A DNA stretch of 32,000 nucleotides, from positions 81,012 through 113,011 of the forward strand of contig CAMVON010000004.1 in NCBI GenBank assembly GCA_947169155.1. The letters are read 5' to 3'. Origin of the DNA: an uncultured Clostridiaceae bacterium. GTDB lineage: Bacteria > Bacillota > Clostridia > TANB77 > CAG-465. The first letter of the stretch is position 1. The number at the start of each line of letters is the position of its first letter. This document shows positions 2,931-24,859 of this stretch, in pieces. The position numbers and the translations under genes are program-made. The notes under the pieces are model-generated. The model worked only from the letters and a program-made list of their open reading frames with translations. It did no database searches and was not told the DNA's origin.

Positions 2931-3854
2931 ATGAATAAAGTAATATGTATTGTTGGACCAACAGCATCAGGTAAGACAGGACTAGCTATTGAGCTAGCTA
3001 AGAAAATAGATGCAGAAGTTATTAGTGCAGATTCAATGCAAATATATAAAGACTTGGATGTAGGAACAGCAAAAGTAACCAAAGAAGAAGCACAAGGAAT
3101 ACCACATCATATGATAAATATATGTAATGTTGAAGATAAATTCTCCGTTGCAGATTTTAAAACTATGTGCTATGATAAAATAGAAGAGATACAAAAACGT
3201 GGCAAAAACGTAATAATAGCTGGCGGTACAGGATTATATGTTAATGCAGTAGTATATAATATGAATTTTACTGAAGAAGAAACAGATACAGCATTAAGAC
3301 AAGAATTAGAAAAAATTGCAAAAGAAAAAGGCAATGAATATCTTCATAATATGTTAAAAGAACTTGACCCTGTAACAGCAGAAGAAATTCATATGAATAA
3401 CGTAAAACGTGTAATTCGTGCAATTGAAATGGCAAAAAATGTTGGACTTAAGTCTAAGCATATGGAAGAAGAAAAGACAAGAATTGCAAATGAAAAAAGT
3501 CCATATGAATTTATAGTATTTTGTATTGAACAAGAAAGAGAATACTTATATAAAAGAATTAATCTAAGAGTAGATTTAATGATAAAAGACGGAATATTAG
3601 AAGAAGCAAGAAAAGTTTATGATATGAAATTGCCATCAAACAACACTTGTATGCAAGCAATTGGATATAAAGAATTCTTTCCATACTTTGAAGGAAACGC
3701 AACTTTAGAAGAGTGCGTTGAAACATTAAAGAAAGAAACAAGACATTATGCAAAACGTCAAATGACATGGTTTAACAACAAGCTAGATTGTATAATGCTA
3801 GATGGAAGCAAGCCAAAAGATGAACTAGTAAATGAAATTATAAGTAAATTATAA
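2931..3854 (+). CDS. miaA: tRNA dimethylallyltransferase MiaA
   Basis: 307 aa. P-loop GPTASGKT and SADSMQIYKDLDVGTAK. AAGGAGA SD. 10-nt gap after mutL, the classic mutL-miaA linkage. Confidence 0.95.
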   Translation: MNKVICIVGPTASGKTGLAIELAKKIDAEVISADSMQIYKDLDVGTAKVTKEEAQGIPHHMINICNVEDKFSVADFKTMCYDKIEEIQKRGKNVIIAGGTGLYVNAVVYNMNFTEEETDTALRQELEKIAKEKGNEYLHNMLKELDPVTAEEIHMNNVKRVIRAIEMAKNVGLKSKHMEEEKTRIANEKSPYEFIVFCIEQEREYLYKRINLRVDLMIKDGILEEARKVYDMKLPSNNTCMQAIGYKEFFPYFEGNATLEECVETLKKETRHYAKRQMTWFNNKLDCIMLDGSKPKDELVNEIISKL

Positions 3855-3871
3855 TGAAATAGGAGAGGTAT

Positions 3872-5089
3872 ATGAGAAAGGTTTTAGACTTTTTAAAAGC
3901 TAATATTAGAATAGTTGTTATAGCAGTTATATTATTAGTATTTATTATTGTATATAAGTCTAAAGATGTATTTACACATAAGACAATTTACACAGTTGTT
4001 AATGGTGACCTTGAAAGCATTACAGAAACAAATCTATATTTGCTAAAATCTGAAAATATAGTAGATTATAACAAAGAAGAAGCAATTACAGCTATAGTAG
4101 ATCAAGGAAAACGTGCATCAAAATATGAAGCAATAGCTACATACCAAAATGAAAGCTATGCAGATTACCAAAATCAAATTGCACAAATAGACAAACAAAT
4201 ACAATCATTAATAAAAGATATGCCAGAAACTCATTCTGCAGATATAACTAGTATAGAAAACAAAATTTTAAAATATGCATCAGAACTACAAGGGACTAAT
4301 TCATATTCTAAAATCCAAGAATATAAAGCTAAACTAGATGAACTTGCATATAAAAAGATTACAATCCTTGCAAATAGCTCACCAGAAAATTCTGCAATAA
4401 GAGATTTATTATCACAAAGAGAAGAATTAGTTAGACTTAGTAAAACGTCAGAAAATACAATTTGGACAGATAGAGCAGGAATTGTTACATATAAAATTGA
4501 TGGCTTAGAGGGAATATTAGATTATGGAAATGTTACTAACTATTCTGCTCAAGAATTAGATAATATAATTGAAAAATATAACACAAATGGAAATAATGAA
4601 TTTGGAATAAAAATAGTAAATAATTTTAACGCATATTTGTTAGTGAAAACACCAAAAGGAGAAAACGACGAATATATAAAAGAAGGAAGAACATACAACA
4701 TAAGAGTAGCAGATTTAGAAAATACAACACTAAAAGTAAGACTTACTAAAAATATAGCTGAAGGAGATTATAACTATTCAATATTTGAAATTCAAAACGA
4801 AATTGATAGCTTAGTAGATTATAGAAAATTATCTTGTGAAGTGATTTGGAATACAATAAGCGGGATGGCTGTACCACTTAATGCTATATACCATGATGAT
4901 GAACAAAATTACGATTATGTTTTAATGGTATATGGAACAGATTATAAAAGAGTAGCGGTAAACATTAAAAGAAAAAGTGATAGTATAGCAATTGTTGAAA
5001 ATGTGGATAAAAGCACAGCAGAAAGCTATGGACTTGACACATCATTCGTACTTGAAATGTATGATGAACTTGTAATAGAAGATAGATAA
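3872..5089 (+). CDS. membrane-anchored coiled-coil protein, HlyD/membrane-fusion-protein-like
   Basis: 405 aa. One N-terminal TM helix (IVVIAVILLVFIIVY), a long Q/K/E-rich coiled-coil region, then a beta-rich C-terminal part ending in a GMAVPLNAI-type motif typical of periplasmic adaptor proteins. AGGAGAGG SD. The family call is from architecture only. Confidence 0.5.
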   Translation: MRKVLDFLKANIRIVVIAVILLVFIIVYKSKDVFTHKTIYTVVNGDLESITETNLYLLKSENIVDYNKEEAITAIVDQGKRASKYEAIATYQNESYADYQNQIAQIDKQIQSLIKDMPETHSADITSIENKILKYASELQGTNSYSKIQEYKAKLDELAYKKITILANSSPENSAIRDLLSQREELVRLSKTSENTIWTDRAGIVTYKIDGLEGILDYGNVTNYSAQELDNIIEKYNTNGNNEFGIKIVNNFNAYLLVKTPKGENDEYIKEGRTYNIRVADLENTTLKVRLTKNIAEGDYNYSIFEIQNEIDSLVDYRKLSCEVIWNTISGMAVPLNAIYHDDEQNYDYVLMVYGTDYKRVAVNIKRKSDSIAIVENVDKSTAESYGLDTSFVLEMYDELVIEDR

Positions 5090-5094
5090 AAATA

Positions 5095-5122
5095 AGAAGC
5101 AACTTTTTTAGGAGTTGCTTCT
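5095..5122. terminator. bidirectional rho-independent terminator between convergent genes
   Basis: Perfect 10-bp stem AGAAGCAACT / AGTTGCTTCT with an 8-nt loop, A-run upstream and T-run downstream. It overlaps the last codons of the minus-strand ORF. Confidence 0.75.
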
Positions 5123-5689
5123 TTTTGTGTATTTTTTACCGCTAATTTGATCTGTATAGACCTTAACGTTTTGGTGTTTTTCAGTGTTTAATACCTTCTT
5201 TTGGTCTCCAAGTATAAGTAGTGTTTGATACAACTCATACTTAGAAAACATATCTGTTTCCATTATTTCATTTATGCACTTTTCATAGTAGTACTCTCTA
5301 GAATTTTGCACAAGTAGTGGCTTGTCTAATATCTTATTATAATGGCTTAAATTATCTGAAAGAATAGAAGACGTTATAATAGCTTCAGGGCTTTCATAGT
5401 CCCCAGCTTTGTAATCTTCTATACTCTTAGTATAATTTCCAATTAAATCTGTATTTTCACATACCTTATTATATACAATAGCACTAAGTCCAGTTGTATT
5501 TACTCTGATGCATTCATAATTATCATCACTGTATAATGGAGAGTCTTTTGGCGCTAAATATGCCAAAATTCCAGACTTTTCTCCATCATTAAGAGTAAGT
5601 ACTTTGTTACCAAACTCAGATAACTTAATTCCATATTTTAGACAATCACTAGCAACATTTTTATCTAGATAGATATACAAATCTTGCAT
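5108..5689 (-). CDS. hypothetical protein
   Basis: ORF track 5108..5698. I prefer ATG at 5689 (MQDLYIYL...) because GAGGTG lies 6 nt upstream; the track start at 5698 is the GTG inside that SD. No family recognised. Confidence 0.65.
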   Translation of the reverse strand: MQDLYIYLDKNVASDCLKYGIKLSEFGNKVLTLNDGEKSGILAYLAPKDSPLYSDDNYECIRVNTTGLSAIVYNKVCENTDLIGNYTKSIEDYKAGDYESPEAIITSSILSDNLSHYNKILDKPLLVQNSREYYYEKCINEIMETDMFSKYELYQTLLILGDQKKVLNTEKHQNVKVYTDQISGKKYTKRSNS

Positions 5690-5753
5690 GATTATCACCT
5701 CAAGTGACTATATTATAGCATAGCTAAGGTAAAATGTTAAGAAAAAAATAAAA

Positions 5754-5775
5754 AAGCTACCAAATTAATGGTAGC
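5754..5775 (-). terminator. rho-independent terminator of dut
   Basis: 8-bp stem AGCTACCA / TGGTAGCT with a 6-nt loop, followed on the minus strand by a T-run (plus-strand aaaaaataaaaaa at 5741-5753). Confidence 0.7.
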
Positions 5776-5788
5776 TAAACTCTTAAAA

Positions 5789-6244
5789 CTATTTATCTGT
5801 AGAACCAAATCCACCCATACGTGTACCAGTAGCATTATCATCATCAACTGTTAAGTATTTTTGGAATACTACTTGTCCAATAACATCACCTTTTTTAACT
5901 TCAATATCATGGTCTGAACAATTAAAGTATGCAAAAAAGAAATGTCCATCGTTGTCTGGATTTCCATAGTAGTCTGAATCTATTAATCCAACGCTATTTG
6001 CCATTAAAAATCCTTTTTTAGGACCAGAACTTCTGTTAAGTAGAAGATAGCACTCATCTTCCATACAATATGCTTTAAGCCCTGTTGGTATTAATGTTGG
6101 TTTTATTCCTGGATAATATTTTGGAATAATAATATCTTCTGCAGCTTCAACATCATATCCTGCTGAATGAGCAGTTTTTCTAACTGGCATATGAATATCT
6201 TTATCTTCATATCCTTTAGCAATTTCAAATCCTCTTTGTCTCAT
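5789..6244 (-). CDS. dut: dUTP diphosphatase (trimeric dUTPase)
   Basis: 151 aa with all five dUTPase motifs: SAGYDV, IPTGLK, GLIDSDYYG, GDVIGQVV, RMGGFGSTDK. AAGGGGGA SD. Confidence 0.93.
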   Translation of the reverse strand: MRQRGFEIAKGYEDKDIHMPVRKTAHSAGYDVEAAEDIIIPKYYPGIKPTLIPTGLKAYCMEDECYLLLNRSSGPKKGFLMANSVGLIDSDYYGNPDNDGHFFFAYFNCSDHDIEVKKGDVIGQVVFQKYLTVDDDNATGTRMGGFGSTDK

Positions 6245-6389
6245 TTTTAAGTCCCCCTTAATTCCATATGTATTATATCATAATGAGTAATAAAAACAAT
6301 AAAATTATAATAAAAAATATAATAATAAAGAAAATGAAATATAATAAAAATATTTAAAAAATAATTAAAAAAATTAGCCTCAAAAGAGA

Positions 6390-7283
6390 CTAATTAATAT
6401 GTTCAAGTCTTGCTATACGTTCATCTATTGATGGGTGTGTAGAAAATATAGAACTTTTCTTTTTCTTTCTTGTTTTACCATTTGGATCATTAATATACAT
6501 ATGAGCAGTTGCATTACTATAATTTTTCATTGTAGAGTTATCTGCATCAAGTTTTCTTAAAGCAGAAATAAGTCCTTTTGGATTTCTAGTAAATTCAACT
6601 GAAGTTGCATCTGCAAGATATTCTCTTTTACGAGACACTGCAAGTTGAATTATCTTAGAAACAATTGGAGAAAGAAGTAAGAAAACAAATCCAATTATAT
6701 ATAATATTACAGTATATTTTCCAAAATCATCATTATCTGAGCGTCTTCTTCTAAAACCAAATCTTAATACTAAATCTGAAATCATTACTATAAAACCAGC
6801 AAATACTGATACTACAGTAGAAAGTAAAATATCATAGTTTTTTACATGAGATAGCTCGTGAGCTAAAACTCCTTCAAGTTCATACTTGTCCATTATATCT
6901 AGAAGTCCAGTTGTAACGCATATTACAGCGTTTTGTGGATTTCTTCCTGTTGCAAATGCATTAGGTGAAGGATTGTCTACTACATATAGTTTAGGTCTTG
7001 GTAAACCAGATGCAATAACAAGCCCATCCATAACAGTTGTAAGTAATTGATCTTCTTGAGGATTAGCAGGTCTTGCATTATTCATTGCAAGTACTATCTT
7101 ATCACAATTATAGTAACTAATAAAACTAGTAATAATAGAAAAGGCCATAGCAATGATAACAGAGTATGGCCCTAAGTTCATGTAATAACATACAAAGTAT
7201 ATAAGTAGTGTTACTATTAATACGAATCCTAAAACTATAAAAAATGATTCAATTTTGTTATTTCTTACAGCTTTTAATATCAT
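6390..7283 (-). CDS. htpX: M48-family zinc metalloprotease HtpX
   Basis: 297 aa, N-terminal and central TM helices, HELSHVKNYD zinc motif. 9-nt gap after lemA, the common lemA-htpX pair. Confidence 0.9.
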   Translation of the reverse strand: MILKAVRNNKIESFFIVLGFVLIVTLLIYFVCYYMNLGPYSVIIAMAFSIITSFISYYNCDKIVLAMNNARPANPQEDQLLTTVMDGLVIASGLPRPKLYVVDNPSPNAFATGRNPQNAVICVTTGLLDIMDKYELEGVLAHELSHVKNYDILLSTVVSVFAGFIVMISDLVLRFGFRRRRSDNDDFGKYTVILYIIGFVFLLLSPIVSKIIQLAVSRKREYLADATSVEFTRNPKGLISALRKLDADNSTMKNYSNATAHMYINDPNGKTRKKKKSSIFSTHPSIDERIARLEHIN

Positions 7284-7292
7284 AAAATCACC

Positions 7293-7838
7293 TTAAAATT
7301 GTACTTTTACAGGTTCTTTTTGAGCTTCATCAATAGTAAAGAATGGTTCTTCTTTGTATCCAAACATTCCAGCTAGAATATTGCTTGGAAATTTCATTAT
7401 AGCAGTGTTATACATTTGAACTGTATCGTTATAAAATTGTCTAGAATATGCAACTTTATCTTCAGTTCCAGCAAGTTCAGTTTGTAGTGCTAAGAAGTTT
7501 TCGTTTGCTTTTAATTCTGGATAAGCTTCACCTAAAGCAAAGATACTTTTTAAAGTAGATGTTAATTCGTTGTTTGCTTTAGCTTTGTCTTCAACAGATG
7601 AAGCACTTGCATATGTATTTCTAGCAGCAATAACTTTTTCTAAAGTTCCTTGCTCATGAGCAGCATATCCTTTAACTGTTTCAACAAGATTTGGAATTAA
7701 ATCAAATCTTCTTTTAAGTTGTGTATCGATTTGTGCCCAAGCATTTTTAACTCTCATTTTTAATGATACTAAATGGTTATATACACTTATAGCCCAAACT
7801 ATAAGTAATACAACAATAACTAATAGAGCAATCCACAT
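7293..7838 (-). CDS. lemA: LemA family membrane protein
   Basis: 181 aa, a single N-terminal TM, and LemA-typical stretches QIDTQLKRRFDLIPNLVETVKGYAAHE and YNDTVQMYNTAIMKFPSN. GGAGG SD. Confidence 0.9.
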   Translation of the reverse strand: MWIALLVIVVLLIVWAISVYNHLVSLKMRVKNAWAQIDTQLKRRFDLIPNLVETVKGYAAHEQGTLEKVIAARNTYASASSVEDKAKANNELTSTLKSIFALGEAYPELKANENFLALQTELAGTEDKVAYSRQFYNDTVQMYNTAIMKFPSNILAGMFGYKEEPFFTIDEAQKEPVKVQF

Positions 7839-7973
7839 AGTTTATACCTCCCTTTATATTACTATATTATTTTATCATTAATTATTATCAAATGCAATAT
7901 AATGAAGTAATACAAATGTGTATATTTGAATGAAAACATGTTATTTAGTTTTTTATCTAAATAGACATAAAAT

Positions 7974-8002
7974 TTGACATTAAAATTATTATATAGTATA
8001 AT
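7974..8002 (+). promoter_or_regulatory. consensus sigma-70 promoter for the G5/SLT gene
   Basis: TTGACA (7974-7979), 17-nt spacer, TATAAT (7997-8002). Confidence 0.65.
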
Positions 8003-8035
8003 ATCTGTGTTAAATATTCTTTAGGAGGAATTTTT

Positions 8036-9031
8036 GTGAAAGAAGACAAAGCATATATATTAAGAAAAGTGCTTACTGTGTTAAGCCTTGTACTAATATT
8101 TGCTACTGCTGGATTACTAGCAATTACAACCCAACTTAAGACAATTACATTTAACTACTATGGTAATGTTAAATCTATTAAAACATTAGCAAGTTCTGTA
8201 GATGCATTTTTATTACAAAACAATATCTCATTAAACGAGAATGCTCTAATAGAACCTCAAGCTGGAGCAAGAATAACAAACGGAATGACAATCACTGTTT
8301 CAACTACAAGAGCAGATGCTATTGATATTGAAAAAATAAGAGAGTCATATGCACCAGTTGTTGCTAGTGTAAAAGAAGAAATACAAGCAATACCATTTGA
8401 AGAAGAAAAGGTTGATAACGCAGATAGAGAATCTGGAGAAACTGAGGTGTTACAAGAAGGTGTTGAAGGCTCAAAATCTATTAGTTATATAGTTAAAACT
8501 TCAAACAACCAAGTAATACAAAAAAATGAAATTAAAGCTGAAGTAATACAAGAAGCACAAAATAGAGTAGTAGAAGTAGGAACTAAGGTTTCTAGAAGTA
8601 GCTTAGTATCATCTATATATACTACACCGGTTGATGGTGGATTTATAAGTTATAATATAGATTTTCCAGAAGAGTACCAACATTATGCATATAATCTATG
8701 CCAAAGATATGGAATAGACTATTCATTGTTCATTGCAATTATGTTTGTTGAAAGTAGATTTCAACCAAATGCAAGTAATGGAGGAATGTATATTGGTCTA
8801 TGCCAAGTTGCTGCAGCACACTTACCAAACTTAAGTTCAAAACTTGGTATTTCAGATTTATATGATCCTTATGATAATATGACTGCAGGTGCTTATCTTC
8901 TATCATATTATATAAATGCAAATGGTAGCATTGAATCAGGTCTTGCCTCATATGGTGGTGGTGCATCATATGTTAATTTAGCGTTAAGCACTAGAGAAAG
9001 ACTGATTGCAAATGGCGGATTATCTGATTAA
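8036..9031 (+). CDS. YabE-like cell-wall protein: N-terminal TM, DUF348-like region, G5 domain, C-terminal lytic transglycosylase (SLT) domain
   Basis: 331 aa, GTG start 7 nt after AGGAGG. G5-like segment EETEVLQEGVEGSKSISYIV...VVEVGTK. SLT-like FVESRFQPNASN...GLCQV. Sits directly upstream of rsmA, as yabE does in Bacillus. Confidence 0.75.
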   Translation: MKEDKAYILRKVLTVLSLVLIFATAGLLAITTQLKTITFNYYGNVKSIKTLASSVDAFLLQNNISLNENALIEPQAGARITNGMTITVSTTRADAIDIEKIRESYAPVVASVKEEIQAIPFEEEKVDNADRESGETEVLQEGVEGSKSISYIVKTSNNQVIQKNEIKAEVIQEAQNRVVEVGTKVSRSSLVSSIYTTPVDGGFISYNIDFPEEYQHYAYNLCQRYGIDYSLFIAIMFVESRFQPNASNGGMYIGLCQVAAAHLPNLSSKLGISDLYDPYDNMTAGAYLLSYYINANGSIESGLASYGGGASYVNLALSTRERLIANGGLSD

Positions 9032-9044
9032 AATAATTAATTGA

Positions 9045-9074
9045 GAATAGCTACTAAAATAGCTATTCTTTTTA
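9045..9074 (+). terminator. rho-independent terminator
   Basis: Stem GAATAGCT / AGCTATTC with an 8-nt loop, followed by TTTTT. Confidence 0.7.
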
Positions 9075-9095
9075 TTTCTAAATAAAGGAGAAAAT

Positions 9096-9953
9096 ATGAA
9101 CACATTATCTAAGACAAGAAGTATAATGAACAAATTTAATATTGTTGCAAATAAAAGATACGGTCAAAACTTTCTTATAGATGATAATATTCTTCAAGGA
9201 ATTATATCTTCAGCAGATATAACAGATGAAGACTTAGTAATCGAAATCGGACCTGGTCTTGGAAATCTTACAGAATATATATTAAATACAGCAAAATATG
9301 GATTACTAGTAGAAATAGATCCTAAAATGATTGCAGTTTTAGAAGATAGATTTAGTAATAGAAATAATTACACATTATTAAATGAAGATATACTAAAAGT
9401 AGATATAGATAATCTTGTAAAAAAGATTAAAGCAGAAAATAATATGGAATTTAAAAGCGTTAAAGTAGTTGCAAATCTTCCATACTATATTACAACACCT
9501 ATTATTTTCCAATTATTAGAAGATAGTAATTGTATTGAGTCAATAACAGTAATGGTACAAAAGGAAGTAGCAGAAAGAATGACTGCAGACTCACATTCAA
9601 AAGAATATGGAATATTAACTATAATGGTAGACTATTTTTCAAATGCTAATATAGATATAATTGTTCCAAATTCAAGTTTTATTCCAGAACCTGGAGTAAC
9701 ATCTGCTGTAATTACTTTAAAGAAAAATAGAAAATACAAAGTAAACAATGAAAAAGTTTTCTTTGAACTTGTACATAAAGCTTTTGCTCAAAGAAGAAAG
9801 AAAATGACTAATTCATTAGCTAGTAATAATTTTAATAATATGTCTAAACAAGAAATTGAAGACTTATTTACAAATTGTAACCTAAAGCTAACAACAAGAG
9901 CAGAAGAATTAGAAACAACAGATTTTGTAAAAATTGCAAATAGCATAAAATAA
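9096..9953 (+). CDS. rsmA: 16S rRNA (adenine1518/1519-N6)-dimethyltransferase RsmA/KsgA
   Basis: 285 aa. RYGQNFLIDDNIL, EIGPGLGNLT SAM motif, ANLPYYITTPI. Confidence 0.95.
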   Translation: MNTLSKTRSIMNKFNIVANKRYGQNFLIDDNILQGIISSADITDEDLVIEIGPGLGNLTEYILNTAKYGLLVEIDPKMIAVLEDRFSNRNNYTLLNEDILKVDIDNLVKKIKAENNMEFKSVKVVANLPYYITTPIIFQLLEDSNCIESITVMVQKEVAERMTADSHSKEYGILTIMVDYFSNANIDIIVPNSSFIPEPGVTSAVITLKKNRKYKVNNEKVFFELVHKAFAQRRKKMTNSLASNNFNNMSKQEIEDLFTNCNLKLTTRAEELETTDFVKIANSIK

Positions 9954-11396: not shown

Positions 11397-11425
11397 TTGA
11401 CAACGTATAAATAATTAGATATAAT
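11397..11425 (+). promoter_or_regulatory. perfect consensus sigma-70 promoter of the phosphoesterase pair
   Basis: TTGACA (11397-11402), exactly 17 nt, TATAAT (11420-11425). This leaves an ~80-nt leader before the ATG at 11511. Confidence 0.7.
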
Positions 11426-11510
11426 GAAGTCGGTTGGAGAATGATGATGAGCGCAAATAATTTTTTGGCTTGGTTTTTTAAATTAATATTTAAAAAAGGA
11501 GGGAGTTTAT

Positions 11511-12470
11511 ATGAAAAATTATAGCAAAGTAGTCGAAAAGATGAAAAGTAAGCAGCTCACTCTTAAACAACTCAAATTAACCATGGAGGATATCAACTAT
11601 CTAAGAGACAATGGATACAACGTGAAAGAACAATACGATCCTCGTGTAGAGGACTATGTATATTATATTGTCACATCTGGAGATACTGCATATATAAAAA
11701 TTTCTGATCCTTTAAAACAAGGACAAGAAGTAAAATTAAAACTTCTTGAAATATCCGATCTGCATTGCGGATGTCGAAATTTTGATAAGCAAGGCTTAGA
11801 TAGAACCCTTCAAGAAGCACAGTCAAGAGGAGTAGAGTATGTTCACATTTCAGGAGACTTGATTGACGGATTTGGAGTTTATAGGGGACAAGAGAATAAC
11901 CTTAAACACAATAAAGCAATTGAGCAAATTAATGAACTGATGGCAGTTCTAGAAAAGTACGATTTTTGGTATATAGCCAGCATGGGTAACCATGACCAAT
12001 CATTTTGTATGAAAGGTGGGCTAGATCCAATTAAGTACTTGGAGGCTAAAATGGCAAAAAAAGGTAAAAGATTTACCTACTTAAGCGCCTACGAAGCAAA
12101 TATAATTCATGCAGGAATTGTATTTAGGTTGATCCACTTGTCTGGTGGTGCAGCTAGAGCAGCTTCATATAAAGTTCAAGTGTATCTTTCTAGAGTATTT
12201 GAAAGTAACCTTAATGATGTAGAAATAGGAGGCAAAATATACAACCTACGAAGCATTCAAGCAGGACACTTTCATACATTCTATTCACTATCGATGAGTG
12301 GTATAAGAATAATTATGCCAGGCAATTTCCAACACGATGGTGATCTTGAAAAAAGAATGGGTATTTCTGGAAAAACAGGGGGAATCTTCACTGAACTTAC
12401 TATTATTGGAGACAAAATAGCAAGGGAAAAGATAGAGTTCTTTGATCCTTGGGAAAGGAAGGAGGGATAA
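11511..12470 (+). CDS. calcineurin-like metallophosphoesterase with an ~80-aa N-terminal module; all catalytic motifs intact (copy 1)
   Basis: 319 aa. Motifs SDLH (D83/H85), GDLID (115-119), GNHD (159-162), H209, GHFH (252-255). GGAGGGAG SD. Confidence 0.85.
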   Translation: MKNYSKVVEKMKSKQLTLKQLKLTMEDINYLRDNGYNVKEQYDPRVEDYVYYIVTSGDTAYIKISDPLKQGQEVKLKLLEISDLHCGCRNFDKQGLDRTLQEAQSRGVEYVHISGDLIDGFGVYRGQENNLKHNKAIEQINELMAVLEKYDFWYIASMGNHDQSFCMKGGLDPIKYLEAKMAKKGKRFTYLSAYEANIIHAGIVFRLIHLSGGAARAASYKVQVYLSRVFESNLNDVEIGGKIYNLRSIQAGHFHTFYSLSMSGIRIIMPGNFQHDGDLEKRMGISGKTGGIFTELTIIGDKIAREKIEFFDPWERKEG

Positions 12471-12473
12471 TCT

Positions 12474-13436
12474 ATGAACGAAGATTTTTTAACCTCACAA
12501 AAAGCATCTAATGCTCTTTCAAAAATGCGTGCAACAGCATGTACTTTAGAAGAATTAGAACTTACACAAGAACAGATGGACGAGTTGATAGCAGCAACAG
12601 GAAATATTAACTATAACAACAGGAATAAGACGTACTATATAACAAAGTTTAACGAGAACAATTATGAGATAATTTCTTTCACAAACAGCGAAGAAATTAC
12701 TGAAAGATGGCTAGAAATAAGTGACTTGTACCTTGGTAGTGTTTTCTGTGATATGGAAATGCTTGAATATATTTTAAATCTTGCAAAAGAAGAAGGTATA
12801 ACAAACGTTCATATTGCTGGAGATTTATGCGCAGGACATCCTTCGTATAAAAAACAAGACTTGTATCTTACAGCAAAAACTGCACAAGAGCAAGCTGATA
12901 TTGCTATTGAGCTTTTCTCTAAATTCCCAGAATTTAAATATTACTGTATTAATGGAGAAAGGGATCTATCATTTGAAAAAGGTGATTCTATTAACCCTAT
13001 TGTTTTAGTTCAAAGAGCTTTAAACGAAAAAGGTATAGATTTCCACCACATCAATGAAATGGTAGCAAACTTAGTCATAGACGGTGTAGTTAAGAGAATC
13101 CAGCACGGGACAGGAAGACTAGCATACACAAAGTCATATAAAATCGAGAAAGAAATGTGGCAGCAATTTGAAAATATGAGTGACAATGTCATCATAAAGA
13201 ATCGCAACTACAATATATGCTTTGTTCAATTCGGACATTATCATGTTAACTGTTTACAAAGATTGGGCGGAATAATGATTACATCAACTGCAGGTATGGT
13301 ATTTGATGATAAAGGCGTTTTAAACGAGAATACATCATATCCATCTGCCAAATTCTCTACAGCTGTTATCAAGAATGGTAAAGTTGTAAGATTTGTGACT
13401 GAAAGCATTACCAATCCTAAAAACGTTACCATGTAA
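12474..13436 (+). CDS. paralogous metallophosphoesterase-fold protein with degenerate active site (copy 2, probable pseudo-enzyme)
   Basis: 320 aa, colinear with copy 1. Equivalent positions read SDLY, GDLCA, GERD, H211, GHYH. 3-nt gap after copy 1, with its GGAGGG SD inside copy 1's last codons. Confidence 0.8.
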   Translation: MNEDFLTSQKASNALSKMRATACTLEELELTQEQMDELIAATGNINYNNRNKTYYITKFNENNYEIISFTNSEEITERWLEISDLYLGSVFCDMEMLEYILNLAKEEGITNVHIAGDLCAGHPSYKKQDLYLTAKTAQEQADIAIELFSKFPEFKYYCINGERDLSFEKGDSINPIVLVQRALNEKGIDFHHINEMVANLVIDGVVKRIQHGTGRLAYTKSYKIEKEMWQQFENMSDNVIIKNRNYNICFVQFGHYHVNCLQRLGGIMITSTAGMVFDDKGVLNENTSYPSAKFSTAVIKNGKVVRFVTESITNPKNVTM

Positions 13437-13446
13437 CTATAAAAAA

Positions 13447-13479
13447 AGAGAGTACCAATTATTTGGTATTCTCTTTTTG
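13447..13479. terminator. bidirectional rho-independent terminator between convergent genes
   Basis: Stem AGAGAGTACCAA / TTGGTATTCTCT (one mismatch), TTAT loop, A-run before and T-run after. Confidence 0.75.
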
Positions 13480-13486
13480 TGTTAAA

Positions 13487-14098
13487 TTATTCTTTAGAAA
13501 TTACTTTCCTTTGCCAACTTTTCTTTCCACATTCTGGGCATTTCATATATCTTGTTCTACCAAAATGCATAGACCACAATACACTTGAAAATGTTGGAAC
13601 ATATTTATGATGACAGTTATTACATTCATAGTATCCAGCTGTTTGTTCAATTCTTATTGCAAATGGTATGGCAATTGCAAATTGTGCAAAACCAATAAGT
13701 ATAAGTAATACTCTTAGCCAATCTACCATTTCAATAAATGATGCTACAAATACTAAAGCTAAAAATGTAATTGAAGCACCAAATCCAATAACATATTCTA
13801 GTGCAAGCATTCTTTTTGCTGTTTCTTCTTGCTCTTTTTTCATAGCAAGTATAATTTCATCATATTTTTTATTTGTTTCGTTCATATTAATCATCTCCCC
13901 ATAAAATAATTCATTAATTCCTATACCAAGTATTTCACAAAGTTCTATCATAATAGAAGCATCTGGTAAGCTTTTACCATTTTCCCATTTAGATATTGCT
14001 CTATCTGAAATATTTAGTTTTTCTGCAAGTTCTAGTTGTGTAAGACCAACTTCTTTTCTACGAGTAGCAATAAATCTTCCAATTTTGATTTGATCCAT
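13487..14098 (-). CDS. membrane-tethered XRE-family HTH regulator with C-terminal zinc ribbon
   Basis: ATG at 14098 (MDQIKIGRF...) lies 8 nt after GAAGGAGG; the track start is a TTG in the SD. Cro/C1-type HTH (RKEVGLTQLELAEKLNISDRAISKWENGKSLP), two TM helices, then CNNCHH...CPECGKK. Confidence 0.85.
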   Translation of the reverse strand: MDQIKIGRFIATRRKEVGLTQLELAEKLNISDRAISKWENGKSLPDASIMIELCEILGIGINELFYGEMINMNETNKKYDEIILAMKKEQEETAKRMLALEYVIGFGASITFLALVFVASFIEMVDWLRVLLILIGFAQFAIAIPFAIRIEQTAGYYECNNCHHKYVPTFSSVLWSMHFGRTRYMKCPECGKKSWQRKVISKE

Positions 14099-14191
14099 AA
14101 TATTTTCCTCCTTCAATTATATTTTAATGAATTATTATATAAATTAACACGAACTGTTGGTTGAGTTTCTTCAATTATACCATTTTAAGCC

Positions 14192-14223
14192 AAAAAAAGA
14201 TATATAGAAAAATCTATATATCT
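14192..14223 (-). terminator. rho-independent terminator of the Fic gene
   Basis: Perfect 10-bp stem AGATATATAG / CTATATATCT (14198-14207 / 14214-14223) with a 6-nt loop. The minus-strand T7 run is at 14192-14198. It overlaps the Fic stop codon. Confidence 0.8.
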
Positions 14224-15215
14224 AAATGTGTTTTATAGTATCTTTGGTTTTTACTCTTAGGTTTGTCTGGAATTGTCATCTGGACATATCCATCTCTAAT
14301 AGCACAATTTAAATATTTATTTCTAAGAGTATCTTTATGTTTTATATCCAATTTAAACATTATTTCGTTAGCAGTCATTGGTTCCTCGTCCATGTTATCT
14401 AATAGTCTTTTTACATTGACACTTGCTTCGGTTTTTATCATGTTTGCAACCATATCAAGTTCGTCTAAAGCTTTGTTAATCATATCTAGCATAAATTCCA
14501 CAAACACAGTAGATTCACCATCAACATGAGCTTTAGCTATTGCATCATAATACTCTTTTTGATGTTTTTTTATCTGATTTTCAATAGGTACATATTCAAA
14601 TATATCTCTATAATTGCATAAAATAGCGTTTTGCCAAAATCTAGCTGTACGGCCATTACCATCTTGAAAAGGATGTATAAAAACAAATTCATAGTGAAAA
14701 ATACAAGACATTATAATAGGATTAATATTATTTTTTTCTCTTTTCATCCAATCAAATAAATCTGAAATTAAATATGGTACTTGTTGTGGTGGAGGACAAA
14801 TAAATATACATTTATCTCCAGCAAAAACACCTTCGTTTCCTGTTCTATACTTTCCAGCAAGTGGAACTAAATCCTTTTCTATGATTCCATGAATCTTTAA
14901 TAAATCTTTTTCTGAATATGGTTTTACTTTTGTTAATTGCTCATATGCAAGTTTAATATTTTGAACCTCTTTAATTTCATTGGCAGGACCAACAACTTCT
15001 TTACCATCAATAATATCTCTAACTTGCCCTTTAGAAAGCGTATTTCCTTCTATTGCAAGTGAAGCATGAATTGAAGTTATTTGAGTATTTCTTCTAAGTT
15101 TAGGTTCTTTATCTAATCTAGTATAATGTTTGTATTCTCCAACTTTTTCCATAATTGAAGATAAAGTTTCTAACATTTTATTTGTAATTGTAAATGGTGG
15201 AGTATAATTATCCAT
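14214..15215 (-). CDS. Fic family protein (AMPylase-type) with N-terminal inhibitory helix motif
   Basis: Canonical Fic motif HPFQDGNGRTAR. Upstream inhibitory motif S-LAI-E-G-N, matching (S/T)xxxE(G/N). ATG at 15215 (MDNYTPPF) lies 6 nt after GAGGTG; the track start is the GTG inside the SD. Confidence 0.9.
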   Translation of the reverse strand: MDNYTPPFTITNKMLETLSSIMEKVGEYKHYTRLDKEPKLRRNTQITSIHASLAIEGNTLSKGQVRDIIDGKEVVGPANEIKEVQNIKLAYEQLTKVKPYSEKDLLKIHGIIEKDLVPLAGKYRTGNEGVFAGDKCIFICPPPQQVPYLISDLFDWMKREKNNINPIIMSCIFHYEFVFIHPFQDGNGRTARFWQNAILCNYRDIFEYVPIENQIKKHQKEYYDAIAKAHVDGESTVFVEFMLDMINKALDELDMVANMIKTEASVNVKRLLDNMDEEPMTANEIMFKLDIKHKDTLRNKYLNCAIRDGYVQMTIPDKPKSKNQRYYKTHLDI

Positions 15216-15339
15216 AGTTGTCACCTCACTATTCTAATTATACCATGCTTAAAGATAAAATACAATATCTTACCTATATCTTACCTAAAACATACATAAA
15301 CAAAATGTTACAATTGTAGAATAAAGTAAAAAAGAAAAT

Positions 15340-15382: not shown

Positions 15383-15458
15383 TGGAGCTGAAACTCAGAT
15401 TCGAACTGAGGACCTACGGTTTACAAGACCGTTGCTCTACCAACTGAGCTATTCCAGC
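15383..15458 (-). tRNA. tRNA-Thr (anticodon UGU), CCA encoded
   Basis: Reverse complement GCTGGAATAGCTCAGTTGGTAGAGCAACGGTCTTGTAAACCGTAGGTCCTCAGTTCGAATCTGAGTTTCAGCTCCA folds as a 76-nt cloverleaf with anticodon loop CTTGTAA. Confidence 0.95.
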
Positions 15459-15472
15459 ATATATACTTTTTA

Positions 15473-15547
15473 TGGTGACCCGTAGGAGAGTCGAACTCCT
15501 CACTCCGCCGTGAAAGGGCGATGTCTTAACCGATTGACCAACGGGCC
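15473..15547 (-). tRNA. tRNA-Glu (anticodon UUC), CCA encoded
   Basis: Reverse complement GGCCCGTTGGTCAATCGGTTAAGACATCGCCCTTTCACGGCGGAGTGAGGAGTTCGACTCTCCTACGGGTCACCA. 75 nt, anticodon loop CTTTCAC, acceptor stem pairs with one G-U. Confidence 0.95.
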
Positions 15548-15553
15548 CCATGA

Positions 15554-15629
15554 TGGTGAGCCATCGCAGATTCGAACTGCGGACAACTTGATTAAAAGTC
15601 AAGTGCTCTGCCAACTGAGCTAATGGCCC
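15554..15629 (-). tRNA. tRNA-Lys (anticodon UUU), CCA encoded
   Basis: Reverse complement GGGCCATTAGCTCAGTTGGCAGAGCACTTGACTTTTAATCAAGTTGTCCGCAGTTCGAATCTGCGATGGCTCACCA. 76 nt, anticodon loop CTTTTAA. Confidence 0.95.
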
Positions 15630-16067: not shown

Positions 16068-16409
16068 ATGAAATTAAATAAAATATTGTGCATAATGTGT
16101 ATAACCATGTGCCTTTTTATAACGTCATGTGTTTTTGCGGCAAACAATAATACTACAACAGGATCCACTCCTAGTTTAGTAACTAAAATTAATTCTGCAT
16201 TTACTAGAATTCAAAGCTACCTTAAAAAGATTTCAACTCCAATTGCAGGTGTATGTATAGCTAGTGGAATTATAATTAGGAAATTAAGTTTTGGTGATGA
16301 AAAGAAGATGATTACTGGAAAAAGGATAATAACTAATTCTGTGGTAGGTTATGCAGCAATTCAAATGTTAGACTTAATAATTAAATTTATAGAAGCAGTA
16401 ATTAAATAA
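16068..16409 (+). CDS. small secreted or membrane protein with VirB2/TrbC-pilin-like architecture
   Basis: 113 aa. Signal peptide ending VFA/A, then two hydrophobic helices (ISTPIAGVCIASGIII; IITNSVVGYAAIQMLDLII) separated by a basic loop (RKLSFGDEKKMITGKR). AAGGAGGAGG SD. The call is from architecture only. Confidence 0.45.
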   Translation: MKLNKILCIMCITMCLFITSCVFAANNNTTTGSTPSLVTKINSAFTRIQSYLKKISTPIAGVCIASGIIIRKLSFGDEKKMITGKRIITNSVVGYAAIQMLDLIIKFIEAVIK

Positions 16410-16410
16410 T

Positions 16411-17205
16411 ATGGATGAATATGTAAAAAATTTAAACGAAGTTTTAAATAGATTAAGTATATCACTTAGAAGTACGGTATATGATTTAATAGATAAAATA
16501 GCTACCATAGATAACACTATGTTTGAAAAAGAACCATTAAAAACTATATGTTCAACAAATCTTATATTTATAGTTCTAACTATAATATGGGCTATTATAA
16601 TTGCTATTTCATTTAAATACGTCTTAAATCTATATAGTAATCTAGCTATAAATAGAATTTATTTTTATATCTTAAAATGCGTTATTGTAGGTATAATAAG
16701 CTTAAATAGTTATAGCATTTGTAAAGAAATTATTAGTTTTAATGCTGATTTTACCAAACTATTAGAATTATCTTTAGAAGAGACAATAGATTCAAAAATT
16801 GAATATAAATTTATAGATGATAACATAGATTCAATAAATGACTTAATATCTTCAAAAGATAAACTAAGTTTAAATGGAGTAAAAGATGGTATAGTTTGCT
16901 TTTATATGATATCCCTTTTAATACTATTATCTCTAAGATATGTAATAGTAATATCATGCATAATTATCTCACCAATAATGTGTATATTATTACTTGTGCC
17001 AAAGCTAAATAATTATTTTTATACATATATAAAGGTATTCATATACAATTTATTACTTCAAAATATAAACATATTTATACTATATATTCCAATATCATCA
17101 AAAAATGAAAAGAGTATTTTCTTACCTATTATAATAGGTAGTGTTATACTTATATATAATGTAAATAAAAAAGCAGGAAGTATTATTTATGAGAAAAAGG
17201 ATTAA
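16411..17205 (+). CDS. polytopic membrane protein, VirB6/PrgH-like by architecture and position
   Basis: 264 aa with at least 5 predicted TM helices. Its ATG is 1 nt after the stop of the previous gene. Extremely AT-rich coding sequence. Family assignment is tentative. Confidence 0.35.
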   Translation: MDEYVKNLNEVLNRLSISLRSTVYDLIDKIATIDNTMFEKEPLKTICSTNLIFIVLTIIWAIIIAISFKYVLNLYSNLAINRIYFYILKCVIVGIISLNSYSICKEIISFNADFTKLLELSLEETIDSKIEYKFIDDNIDSINDLISSKDKLSLNGVKDGIVCFYMISLLILLSLRYVIVISCIIISPIMCILLLVPKLNNYFYTYIKVFIYNLLLQNINIFILYIPISSKNEKSIFLPIIIGSVILIYNVNKKAGSIIYEKKD

Positions 17206-17545
17206 TAAACAGCAAATCTTTAGCTTCTATAATAAAGTTCATAAATGGCATGGCTTAATAGATTACAAATCTTTAAGTGCTATAGTTGCGTACATATTTA
17301 TAACAAGCTATTTAGTGCTTAATTTAAATATTACAAATACGCTAAAGTTATATGTAATTATCATATTAGTTTTACCAGTGATTATCTTTACTCTTTTAAA
17401 TATTAATGAAGATTCAGTACTTGAAAAATTGGTTACAATTATAAAGTATATTTTTACAAAAAGGGTGTATACTAAAACGCTAGAATTCAAAGAAAAAGCA
17501 ACTATATATAAAAAGAATGCAGAAAATAGTCGTATTGAAAAATAG
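17189..17545 (+). CDS. PrgI/VirB3-like small membrane protein
   Basis: 118 aa. N-terminal Y-NK....GL..YKSL segment followed by two adjacent TM helices and a basic ...IFTKRVY tail, resembling PrgI-family proteins as I remember them. 17-nt overlap with the upstream gene. Confidence 0.45.
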   Translation: MRKRINKQQIFSFYNKVHKWHGLIDYKSLSAIVAYIFITSYLVLNLNITNTLKLYVIIILVLPVIIFTLLNINEDSVLEKLVTIIKYIFTKRVYTKTLEFKEKATIYKKNAENSRIEK

Positions 17546-24492: not shown

Positions 24493-24519
24493 CATAATTT
24501 GTGATATAATAATTATGTA

Positions 24520-24843
24520 GTATTTCAGATGATTGCTTGCCTTTATGGCCAGAGGAAAGTCCGGACACTATAGAGCAGGGTGCTAGATAACGTCTAGTGG
24601 GAGTGATCCTAAGGAAAGTGCAACAGAAAATTACCGCTACTTTTGTAGTAAGGGTGAAAACGCGAGGTAAGAGCTCACGACAATCTATGGAGACACAGAT
24701 TGGGTGTAAACCCCACCTAGTGCAACACCAGAATGAAACGATATTAGGTTGCTCGCCAAGTTTCAAGTTGGTGGCTTGAGATGCATAGTAATATGCATTC
24801 TAGATAAATAATCATCTAATACAGAATCCGGCTTACGAAATGC
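24520..24843 (+). ncRNA. rnpB: RNase P RNA, type-A-like, compact (~324 nt)
   Basis: Universal P4 strands GAGGAAAGTCCGG (5') and ACAGAATCCGGCTTA (3'). Blocks CAGGGTGCTAGATAACGTCTAG, GTAAGGGTGAAAACGCGAGGTAAGAGCTCAC and GTGTAAACCCCACC parallel E. coli M1 RNA. P1 and P2 pairing of the ends (GTATTTC/GAAATGC; AGATGATT/AATCATCT). Extended -10 TGATATAAT at 24502-24510. Ends are approximate, within a few nt. Confidence 0.92.
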
Positions 24844-24859
24844 TCATATTTTATTTTTT

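Follow-up and report, generated by a model that had tools for sequence, protein, structure and literature searches.

What keeps two adjacent phosphoesterase genes together when one of the two products has lost its catalytic residues? This question is raised by a locus in a stretch of 32,000 nucleotides (nt), called the window, from an uncultured Clostridiaceae bacterium (contig CAMVON010000004.1), where two consecutive genes, copy 1 and copy 2, encode proteins of the calcineurin-like metallophosphoesterase superfamily. An earlier interpretation made from the letters alone, the sequence-only reading, had described an active enzyme and a degenerate paralog retained as a unit and had proposed an obligate heteromer. 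The analysis favours, with a probability of roughly 0.6, a DNA nuclease of phage derivation, a heterodimer in which one active site remains, produced from a bicistronic operon.

The gene pair and its two active sites

The pair and the signals that surround it are arranged as follows, the names of the domains being given in the next section.

11397 to 11425, plus strand: sigma-A type promoter, TTGACA (11397-11402), 17-nt spacer, TATAAT (11420-11425), 12 of 12 consensus positions
11432 to 11510, plus strand: 5' leader of about 80 nt read from the sequence, with the Shine-Dalgarno (SD) motif GGAGGG at 11498-11503 (conserved stretch 11428-11510)
11511 to 12470, plus strand: copy 1, open reading frame (ORF) of 319 amino acids
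12461 to 12466, plus strand: SD motif GGAGGG of copy 2, within the last codons of copy 1, by direct sequence reading
12474 to 13436, plus strand: copy 2, ORF of 320 amino acids
13443 to 13478, no strand assigned: intrinsic terminator hairpin with a 16-bp stem and a 4-nt loop, from RNA folding, with a U-run to 13481

The paralogy of copy 1 and copy 2 is far beyond chance. BLASTP aligns them at 31% identity over 264 columns (E value 2e-32), and the comparison of the two families with hhalign extends over 304 columns, N-terminal module included, at an E value of 4e-50. The colinear alignment described earlier stands, but not the statement that it is free of gaps, as seven gap positions are present, most of them within the N-terminal module, and the core has an indel of one residue. 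Copy 1 carries all five motifs of the superfamily (D-x-H, G-D, G-N-H-[DE], H and G-H-x-H), and no change is seen across 15 copy-1 homologs, at 26-84% identity, in D83, H85, D116, D119, N160, H161, H209, H253 or H255. At the aligned positions, copy 2 displays D84, Y86, D117, A120, E162, R163, H211, H255 and H257. A histidine is thus replaced by Y86, an aspartate by A120, an asparagine by E162, and the catalytic histidine by R163. Copy 2 has kept the fold, as the hhalign score indicates, while motifs I, II' and III have failed, which makes it a degenerate member of the superfamily. The residue numbers of the sequence-only reading are all correct for both copies, and family alignments bear out its claim that four metal or catalytic residues are replaced on a preserved scaffold. 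Still more ligands are gone in distant copy-2 orthologs, where D117 is changed to N, H211 to S, and GHYH to GNLM or GNVL, with D84 also lost in two species; therefore, no shift of the alignment restores the copy 2 site.

Strong purifying selection acts on the two genes to the same degree, with a ratio of non-synonymous (dN) to synonymous (dS) substitution rates, omega, of about 0.05. In the less saturated pairs, omega ranges from 0.035 to 0.064 for both genes; between loci L019 and L023, for instance, dS is 0.39 for copy 1 and 0.37 for copy 2, with omega values of 0.060 and 0.051. Read on its own, the ligand drift of the distant orthologs might describe copy 2 as a decaying duplicate devoid of function, its pairing with copy 1 being incidental. 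However, no locus has a shortened copy 2, which retains 61 invariant columns outside the active site (W79, P123 and YTKSY, among others), its omega equals that of copy 1, and it is found fused to copy 1 in related genomes. Selection and fusion data effectively refute a non-functional copy 2, and the probability left to decay is negligible.

A peculiarity of copy 1 is seen in a sub-lineage (L025:6001-6963, L082:3044-4000) where an A-run is one base longer (CGGAAAAATATA), resulting in a +1 frameshift just before motif V; the homologous site of the window lies at 12236-12247. The truncated proteins P0026, P0027, P0030 and P0039 are affected as well. The 72 codons beyond it display, in the new frame, a dN of 0.054 and a dS of 0.55, that is, the same purifying selection as the upstream part. 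This suggests that the ribosome makes a programmed +1 shift on A-AAA-A or that the gene is split and restarts at an ATGATG located 20 nt upstream.

The two genes constitute a bicistronic operon with a consensus promoter and probable translational coupling. Their size, shared strand and 3-nt gap are as first described: the stop codon TAA of copy 1 (12468-12470) is followed by TCT and by the ATG of copy 2 at 12474, and the embedding of the copy 2 SD motif in the last codons of copy 1 suggests that translation of the second gene is coupled to that of the first. The perfect promoter is also confirmed, both hexamers being unchanged in 10 related species, and no SOS/LexA box is present in the promoter region, window-wide matches being as frequent as expected by chance. 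The strong terminator announced by the sequence-only reading has a folding free energy (dG) of -21.7 kcal/mol and a z-score of -7.8, none of 200 shuffled sequences folding equally well; a simple terminator scanner left this hairpin unlisted. An A-run upstream of the hairpin makes the terminator probably bidirectional, serving also the convergent helix-turn-helix (HTH) gene on the minus strand (13487-14116).

The leader was considered as a riboswitch, and this candidate was dropped because the leader RNA has no match in Rfam and its consensus fold is very weak (-2.8 kcal/mol). A 27-codon upstream ORF starting at ATG 11441 was likewise rejected, since relatives do not share it. The leader may also contain a weak anti-SD pairing, where TTCCT/AGGAG in relatives corresponds to TTTTT/AAAAA in the window, amounting to one compensatory double change.

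Fold and closest known relatives

The architecture of copy 1 comprises two domains.

residues ~1-65 (nt 11511-11705, plus strand): winged-helix domain, a module at residues 5-63 in the AlphaFold2 model
residues ~73-311 (nt 11727-12443, plus strand): DP1/Mre11-like phosphodiesterase (PDE) domain, from the AlphaFold2 model and Foldseek

In the AlphaFold2 model of copy 1 (predicted local distance difference test, pLDDT, 87; predicted template modelling score, pTM, 0.89), the N-terminal module consists of three helices and three strands (H-H-H-E-E-E) and stands directly before the PDE domain. Faint matches of a family member to HTH_5, TrmB and HTH_11 were recorded, and copy 2 has the same winged-helix and PDE architecture.

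By sequence and by fold, the closest known relative is the small subunit DP1 of the archaeal DNA polymerase PolD, well ahead of Mre11 and SbcD. When copy 1 is used as a single sequence against the PDB, DP1 chains are the sole matches. The copy-1 family profile retrieves DP1 at an E value of 8e-17, Mre11 at 3e-6 and SbcD at 3e-3, and the copy-2 family profile retrieves DP1 alone, weakly. With the copy 1 model, the ten best Foldseek matches in the PDB are all PolD DP1 (E values from 4e-13 to 2e-11), with Mre11, Rv0805 and SbcD below them at about 1e-8, and the ranking is unchanged when a fused homolog is used. Alignments to 5IHE, 6KNB and 6T8H, combined with the residue list in PMC10721889, equate D83/H85, D116, N160, H161, H209 and H253/H255 of copy 1 with D360/H362, D404, N450, H451, H497 and H560/H562 of Pyrococcus abyssi DP1. 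The H451A substitution abolishes the exonuclease activity of DP1 (PMC10721889), and copy 2 is devoid of equivalents of H362, N450 and this essential H451. The sequence that follows motif II is also common to the window (GDLIDGFGVYRGQ) and DP1 (GDVVDGVGIYPGQ). The sequence-only reading contained neither the affinity for DP1 nor the phage relatives, and it did not recognize the N-terminal module as a winged helix.

The window proteins are nevertheless not DP1 orthologs, since they have no OB domain, their scores fall far under the cut-offs, PF04042 gives no match at E<=1, and no polymerase is encoded nearby. The NCBIfam PRK04036 (DP1) models match only partially (E value 5e-18, 65.4 bits for a cut-off of 445). 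Copy 1 reaches PF12850 (Metallophos_2) at an E value of 0.019 and 15.4 bits, the cut-off being 27, and copy 2 has no match in Pfam; many orthologs have precomputed PF00149 matches.

The same searches bear on the possibility that the pair acts on small molecules, such as cyclic nucleotides, 2',3'-cNMP or nucleotide polyphosphates, the winged helices or the dead subunit being regulatory. Such a function would agree with the structural matches to Rv0805 and GpdQ at about 1e-8, with the name "predicted phosphodiesterase" that relatives bear at JGI, and with the nucleotide-salvage genes adjacent to the pair, tdk in the window and deoC in L007, which represent two of about seven contexts. However, the DP1 and Mre11 nucleases are 4-10 orders of magnitude closer in sequence and fold searches, the sequence after motif II is common to the window and DP1, and winged helices, together with the phage replication-module contexts described below, fit a nucleic-acid substrate. 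A small-molecule substrate is thus considered rather unlikely.

Co-occurrence, fusions and genomic setting

Close homologs are found only in uncultured gut Clostridia, in metagenome-assembled genomes (MAGs) whose hosts are sheep, deer, rabbit, mouse and human. Both paralogs occur in fixed order in every related locus, from whichever side the search is started: copy 1 is directly followed by copy 2 in 22 of 22 GTDB species loci (with a frameshift of copy 1 in L025 and a split copy 1 in L026), and a search starting from copy 2 recovers the pair in six of six loci with the order unchanged. Together with equal selection and natural fusions, this strict co-occurrence supports the earlier view of an enzyme and a pseudoenzyme retained as a unit.

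A much wider family surrounds the pair. A profile search of 1.8 billion representatives gathers 3,412 proteins at E<=1e-3, archaeal DP1 being possibly among the weaker of them; at E<=1e-30, the number is 573. Among the best 147 representatives, classified by nine ligand positions, 112 are single active domains and about 24 are two-domain fusions, each combining one active or near-active domain with a degenerate one. Four of these fusions place the active domain first and about 20 the dead domain first; none has two fully active domains, and P0114 associates an active domain with a near-active one keeping six of the nine ligands.

In the active-first fusions, the N-terminal half matches best with the copy-1 profile and the C-terminal half with the copy-2 profile. 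Thus, the copy-1 and copy-2 profiles give 253 and 91 for the N-half of P0093, and 104 and 207 for its C-half, in which copy-2 motifs are present. These fusions are therefore the same two genes joined. P0093 itself is a stand-alone gene in a MAG of a sporulating Firmicute, has 20 homologous fusions, and was modelled over 699 residues with a pLDDT of 79 and a pTM of 0.78; the predicted structure fits a fixed arrangement of both halves. In the dead-first fusions, by contrast, the dead half is not copy-2-like, which suggests an independent inactivation; one of these fusions is annotated as Patescibacteria (MAG) and the others are metagenomic.

Single active homologs also lie in phage contexts. P0097 lies on a phage-like contig with small ORFs near tail-fibre-like genes, and P0095 on another with a DUF5906 primase, ParB and RNase_T. 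In IMG/VR, 20 viral contigs include a homolog, the gene adjoining the terminase in some of them. Among GenBank phages, only the archaeal Halorubrum tailed virus BLv36 matches, with a hypothetical-protein annotation alone. The single active genes of phage contigs point to a phage derivation of the gene family.

Some of these viral homologs lie in replication modules. A PolB-like polymerase is encoded at most 8 kb from the homolog in five of 18 viral loci. In one lineage of phages of about 125 kb (IMG/VR contigs L059, L060, L061, at 3786-9669, and L062), the PDE gene of the family lies about 1.3 kb downstream of the PolB-like polymerase, and in three of these four contigs (L059, L061 and L062), it is followed by a second, weaker-scoring family member. 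Fold matches in BFVD include phage proteins auto-annotated as "DNA polymerase II small subunit". These data, and the fact that the nearest known relatives are PolD proofreading subunits, would be in keeping with a trans-acting DP1-like exonuclease that docks on a DNA polymerase for proofreading or 3'-end cleaning, in parallel to DP1-DP2 and to the inactivated B-subunits. Such a polymerase accessory seems improbable for the pair, however, as no polymerase gene adjoins it in the neighbourhoods of any Clostridia locus, a winged helix stands in place of the DP1 OB domain, and the co-location with a polymerase stems from one phage lineage and one jumbo contig.

In the genus of the window, the pair is syntenic with tdk, rsmA, a GDPD gene, LemA, an M48 peptidase, a dUTPase and a G5/SLT protein, and its position beside tdk, rsmA and GDPD is kept across species at 76-99% identity, whereas the genes downstream change. 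The downstream region of the window contains:

13487 to 14116, minus strand: XRE-type HTH protein with a C-terminal Cys-rich/transmembrane region, in the variable spot downstream of the pair
14214 to 15224, minus strand: Fic/DOC protein with a Fic-like_C domain, in the same variable spot
15383 to 15629, minus strand: tRNA cluster Thr(TGT)-Glu(TTC)-Lys(TTT), which bounds the variable region

Other genes occupy the Fic and HTH spot in L001-L004 (DUF3800, ECF sigma, M10 peptidase), and no gene is called there in L009. The conserved synteny of the pair and the exchange of genes downstream indicate that the variable spot begins after the terminator, leaving the pair outside. Farther away in the lineage, the pair is surrounded by other, unrelated housekeeping genes (ackA/VanW; deoC/lexA; corA/YibE; RelA_SpoT; Vut_1/GerA/CarD). 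No partner gene is conserved, so that the pair can be regarded as a self-contained unit.

This organization does not support the placement of the cassette in an accessory islet, which the sequence-only reading had proposed, nor the location in a variable or defence island that it had envisaged; variation is limited to the Fic and HTH genes that follow the pair. It also bears on the hypothesis of an anti-phage defence or abortive-infection module, in which copy 1 would degrade invading or host DNA under the control of copy 2 as sensor or regulator. The variable region starting directly downstream and the many phage relatives of the family would be in keeping with such a module, as would a very weak match to the anti-phage phosphoesterase DS9_1 of NCBIfam (E value 0.0086, 15 bits for a cut-off of 420). 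On the other hand, PADLOC has no family for either protein, in agreement with the earlier failure to match the pair to a named defence system. The pair is present in every related species found, keeps its place while the genes downstream change, has an omega of about 0.05 for both genes, and in distant species lies among housekeeping genes. No plasmid copy is found in PLSDB, and no mobile-element genes are seen adjoining the pair. A defence function is accordingly held to be improbable.

The window is ordinary core chromosome, in which three further features were delimited:

16068 to 17545, plus strand: three-gene cluster, ORFs encoding 113, 264 and 118 amino acids, no Pfam match
24517 to 24850, plus strand: RNase P RNA class A, 263 bits
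29467 to 29552, plus strand: small SRP RNA, 68 bits

The three-gene cluster is kept, in several species, directly upstream of DnaD/DnaB_2-like and DnaI/IstB-like replication genes, and its first gene gives weak T4SS_pilin/TrbC matches in relatives.

A candidate heterodimeric nuclease and its known counterparts

Copy 1 and copy 2 would assemble into a heterodimeric nuclease with pseudo-symmetry, each subunit being composed of a winged helix and a DP1/Mre11-type PDE domain, the two PDE domains assembling as Mre11-type domains do. Copy 1, with its complete two-metal site, would be the sole cleaving subunit, whereas copy 2, having lost its site, would form the structural or DNA-binding half and provide the other part of the substrate-binding surface. 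The complex would most likely hydrolyze DNA as a 3'->5' exonuclease or as a single-strand endonuclease on DNA ends, like DP1 and Mre11/SbcD, and might serve in repair, recombination or end cleaning. In the gut Clostridia lineage, a phage-derived gene may have been duplicated, one of the copies being inactivated and the pair then fixed in the chromosome.

The different parts of this scheme do not carry the same weight. The association of copy 1 and copy 2 in a heteromer is predicted with good confidence, the obligate character proposed by the sequence-only reading being argued for by strict co-occurrence, natural fusions, the pTM of the fused-protein model and equal selection. As for copy 2, the sensing or regulating role first imagined is no more likely than one in structure or DNA binding. 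That the complex acts as a DNA nuclease is predicted with slightly better than even odds, the choice of DNA as substrate being suggested by the closeness to DP1 and Mre11, by the presence of winged helices and by the location of phage homologs in replication modules.

Several observations weigh against the proposed nuclease. Most homologs are single genes, so that a homodimer or a monomer is also viable for this fold. The heterodimer is deduced from co-occurrence and fusions, and the model in question was made for the natural fusion P0093. Metallophosphoesterases are catalytically promiscuous, so the fold alone is no proof of a DNA substrate, and for the family as a whole nuclease activity is predicted by comparison. 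The OB domain of DP1 is missing, there is no polymerase or Rad50-like partner nearby, and the window protein falls under the Pfam gathering thresholds (PF00149 / PF12850). Finally, among the loci compared, there is no conserved gene beside the pair from which a pathway could be deduced.

The fold and its chemistry are already known; what is new is the combination of a winged helix with a DP1-like domain, its distribution in bacteria and phages, and the recurrent pairing of a live with a dead domain. Literature searches found no paper on bacterial DP1-like proteins or on metallophosphoesterase enzyme-pseudoenzyme pairs, and databases name the relatives "metallophosphoesterase" or "predicted phosphodiesterase". 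In the PolD literature, DP1-type exonucleases are described as confined to Archaea, with the polymerase B-subunits of eukaryotes as their dead descendants. The existence of the DP1 catalytic core in a sizeable family of bacteria and phages bears on the origin of DP1, and the repeated association of live and dead domains offers a tractable bacterial model for the evolution of enzymes and pseudoenzymes. A more daring, and doubtful, extension would see in the family an unrecognised bacterial and phage branch of the DP1/polymerase B-subunit lineage in which heterodimers appear to have arisen at least twice, on the one hand in the active-first pairs and fusions of Firmicutes, with their copy-2-like degenerate half, and on the other in the dead-first fusions. 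The Clostridia complex could then be an exonuclease acting in trans, which would proofread or clean 3' ends together with the proteins of replication or repair. Such an exonuclease, if real, would constitute a bacterial parallel to both PolD proofreading and the inactivation of eukaryotic B-subunits. The practical consequence is limited for now, and a conserved candidate for DNA metabolism is added to those of abundant uncultured gut Clostridia.

Among known systems, the class III cyclic-nucleotide phosphodiesterases Rv0805/CpdA show a resemblance at the level of the fold alone (E value about 1e-8) that ranks below DP1 and Mre11. Both window proteins match phrog_7339, a 'DNA repair exonuclease', at E values of 6e-12 and 9e-9, and BFVD fold matches to phage metallophosphoesterases reach 4e-15, Herelleviridae metallophosphatases included. 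The mycobacteriophage protein Gp48 illustrates that a phage metallophosphoesterase can be a DNase (PMC12287305). However, the phage members of the family are mostly single active genes, and a chromosomal pair of enzyme and pseudoenzyme is not described for phage metallophosphoesterases.

Mre11 and SbcD have in common with the pair the PDE fold and nuclease chemistry, and they form dimers of PDE domains that jointly bind DNA. In these dimers, the engagement of DNA by one active site at once would suit a heterodimer possessing a single live site. They differ in being homodimers, in requiring Rad50/SbcC and in having no winged-helix domain, and their similarity to the window proteins is weaker in the profile search (3e-6 and 3e-3, as compared to 8e-17 for DP1). 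No gene for an SMC or ABC ATPase lies beside the pair, whether in the window or in the related loci.

The archaeal PolD subunit DP1 (5IHE, 6T8H, 8PPT), a 3'-5' proofreading exonuclease, is the closest counterpart. The likeness lies in the Mre11-like PDE fold, in identical ligands (D-x-H, GD, GNH(D), H, GHxH), in the signature GD(L/V)(I/V)DGxG(V/I)YxGQ after motif II, and in a common C-terminal GHxH...FQ segment. DP1 includes an OB-fold domain, whereas the window proteins have an N-terminal winged helix; it is an archaeal protein of 500-650 amino acids, whereas they have about 320 and belong to a bacterial or phage family. Besides, the pair has no DP2 partner, and copy 1 is associated with its own dead paralog instead.

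The B-subunits of the eukaryotic polymerases alpha, delta and epsilon provide the counterpart of copy 2. They contain a DP1-type PDE domain that has lost its metal ligands and has been kept as a structural subunit (PMC7281927), and copy 2 shows the same kind of inactivation. Whereas the partner of a B-subunit is a polymerase catalytic subunit, that of copy 2 would be an active PDE paralog. Rather than an ortholog of the eukaryotic B-subunits, copy 2 represents an independent bacterial inactivation of this type of domain.

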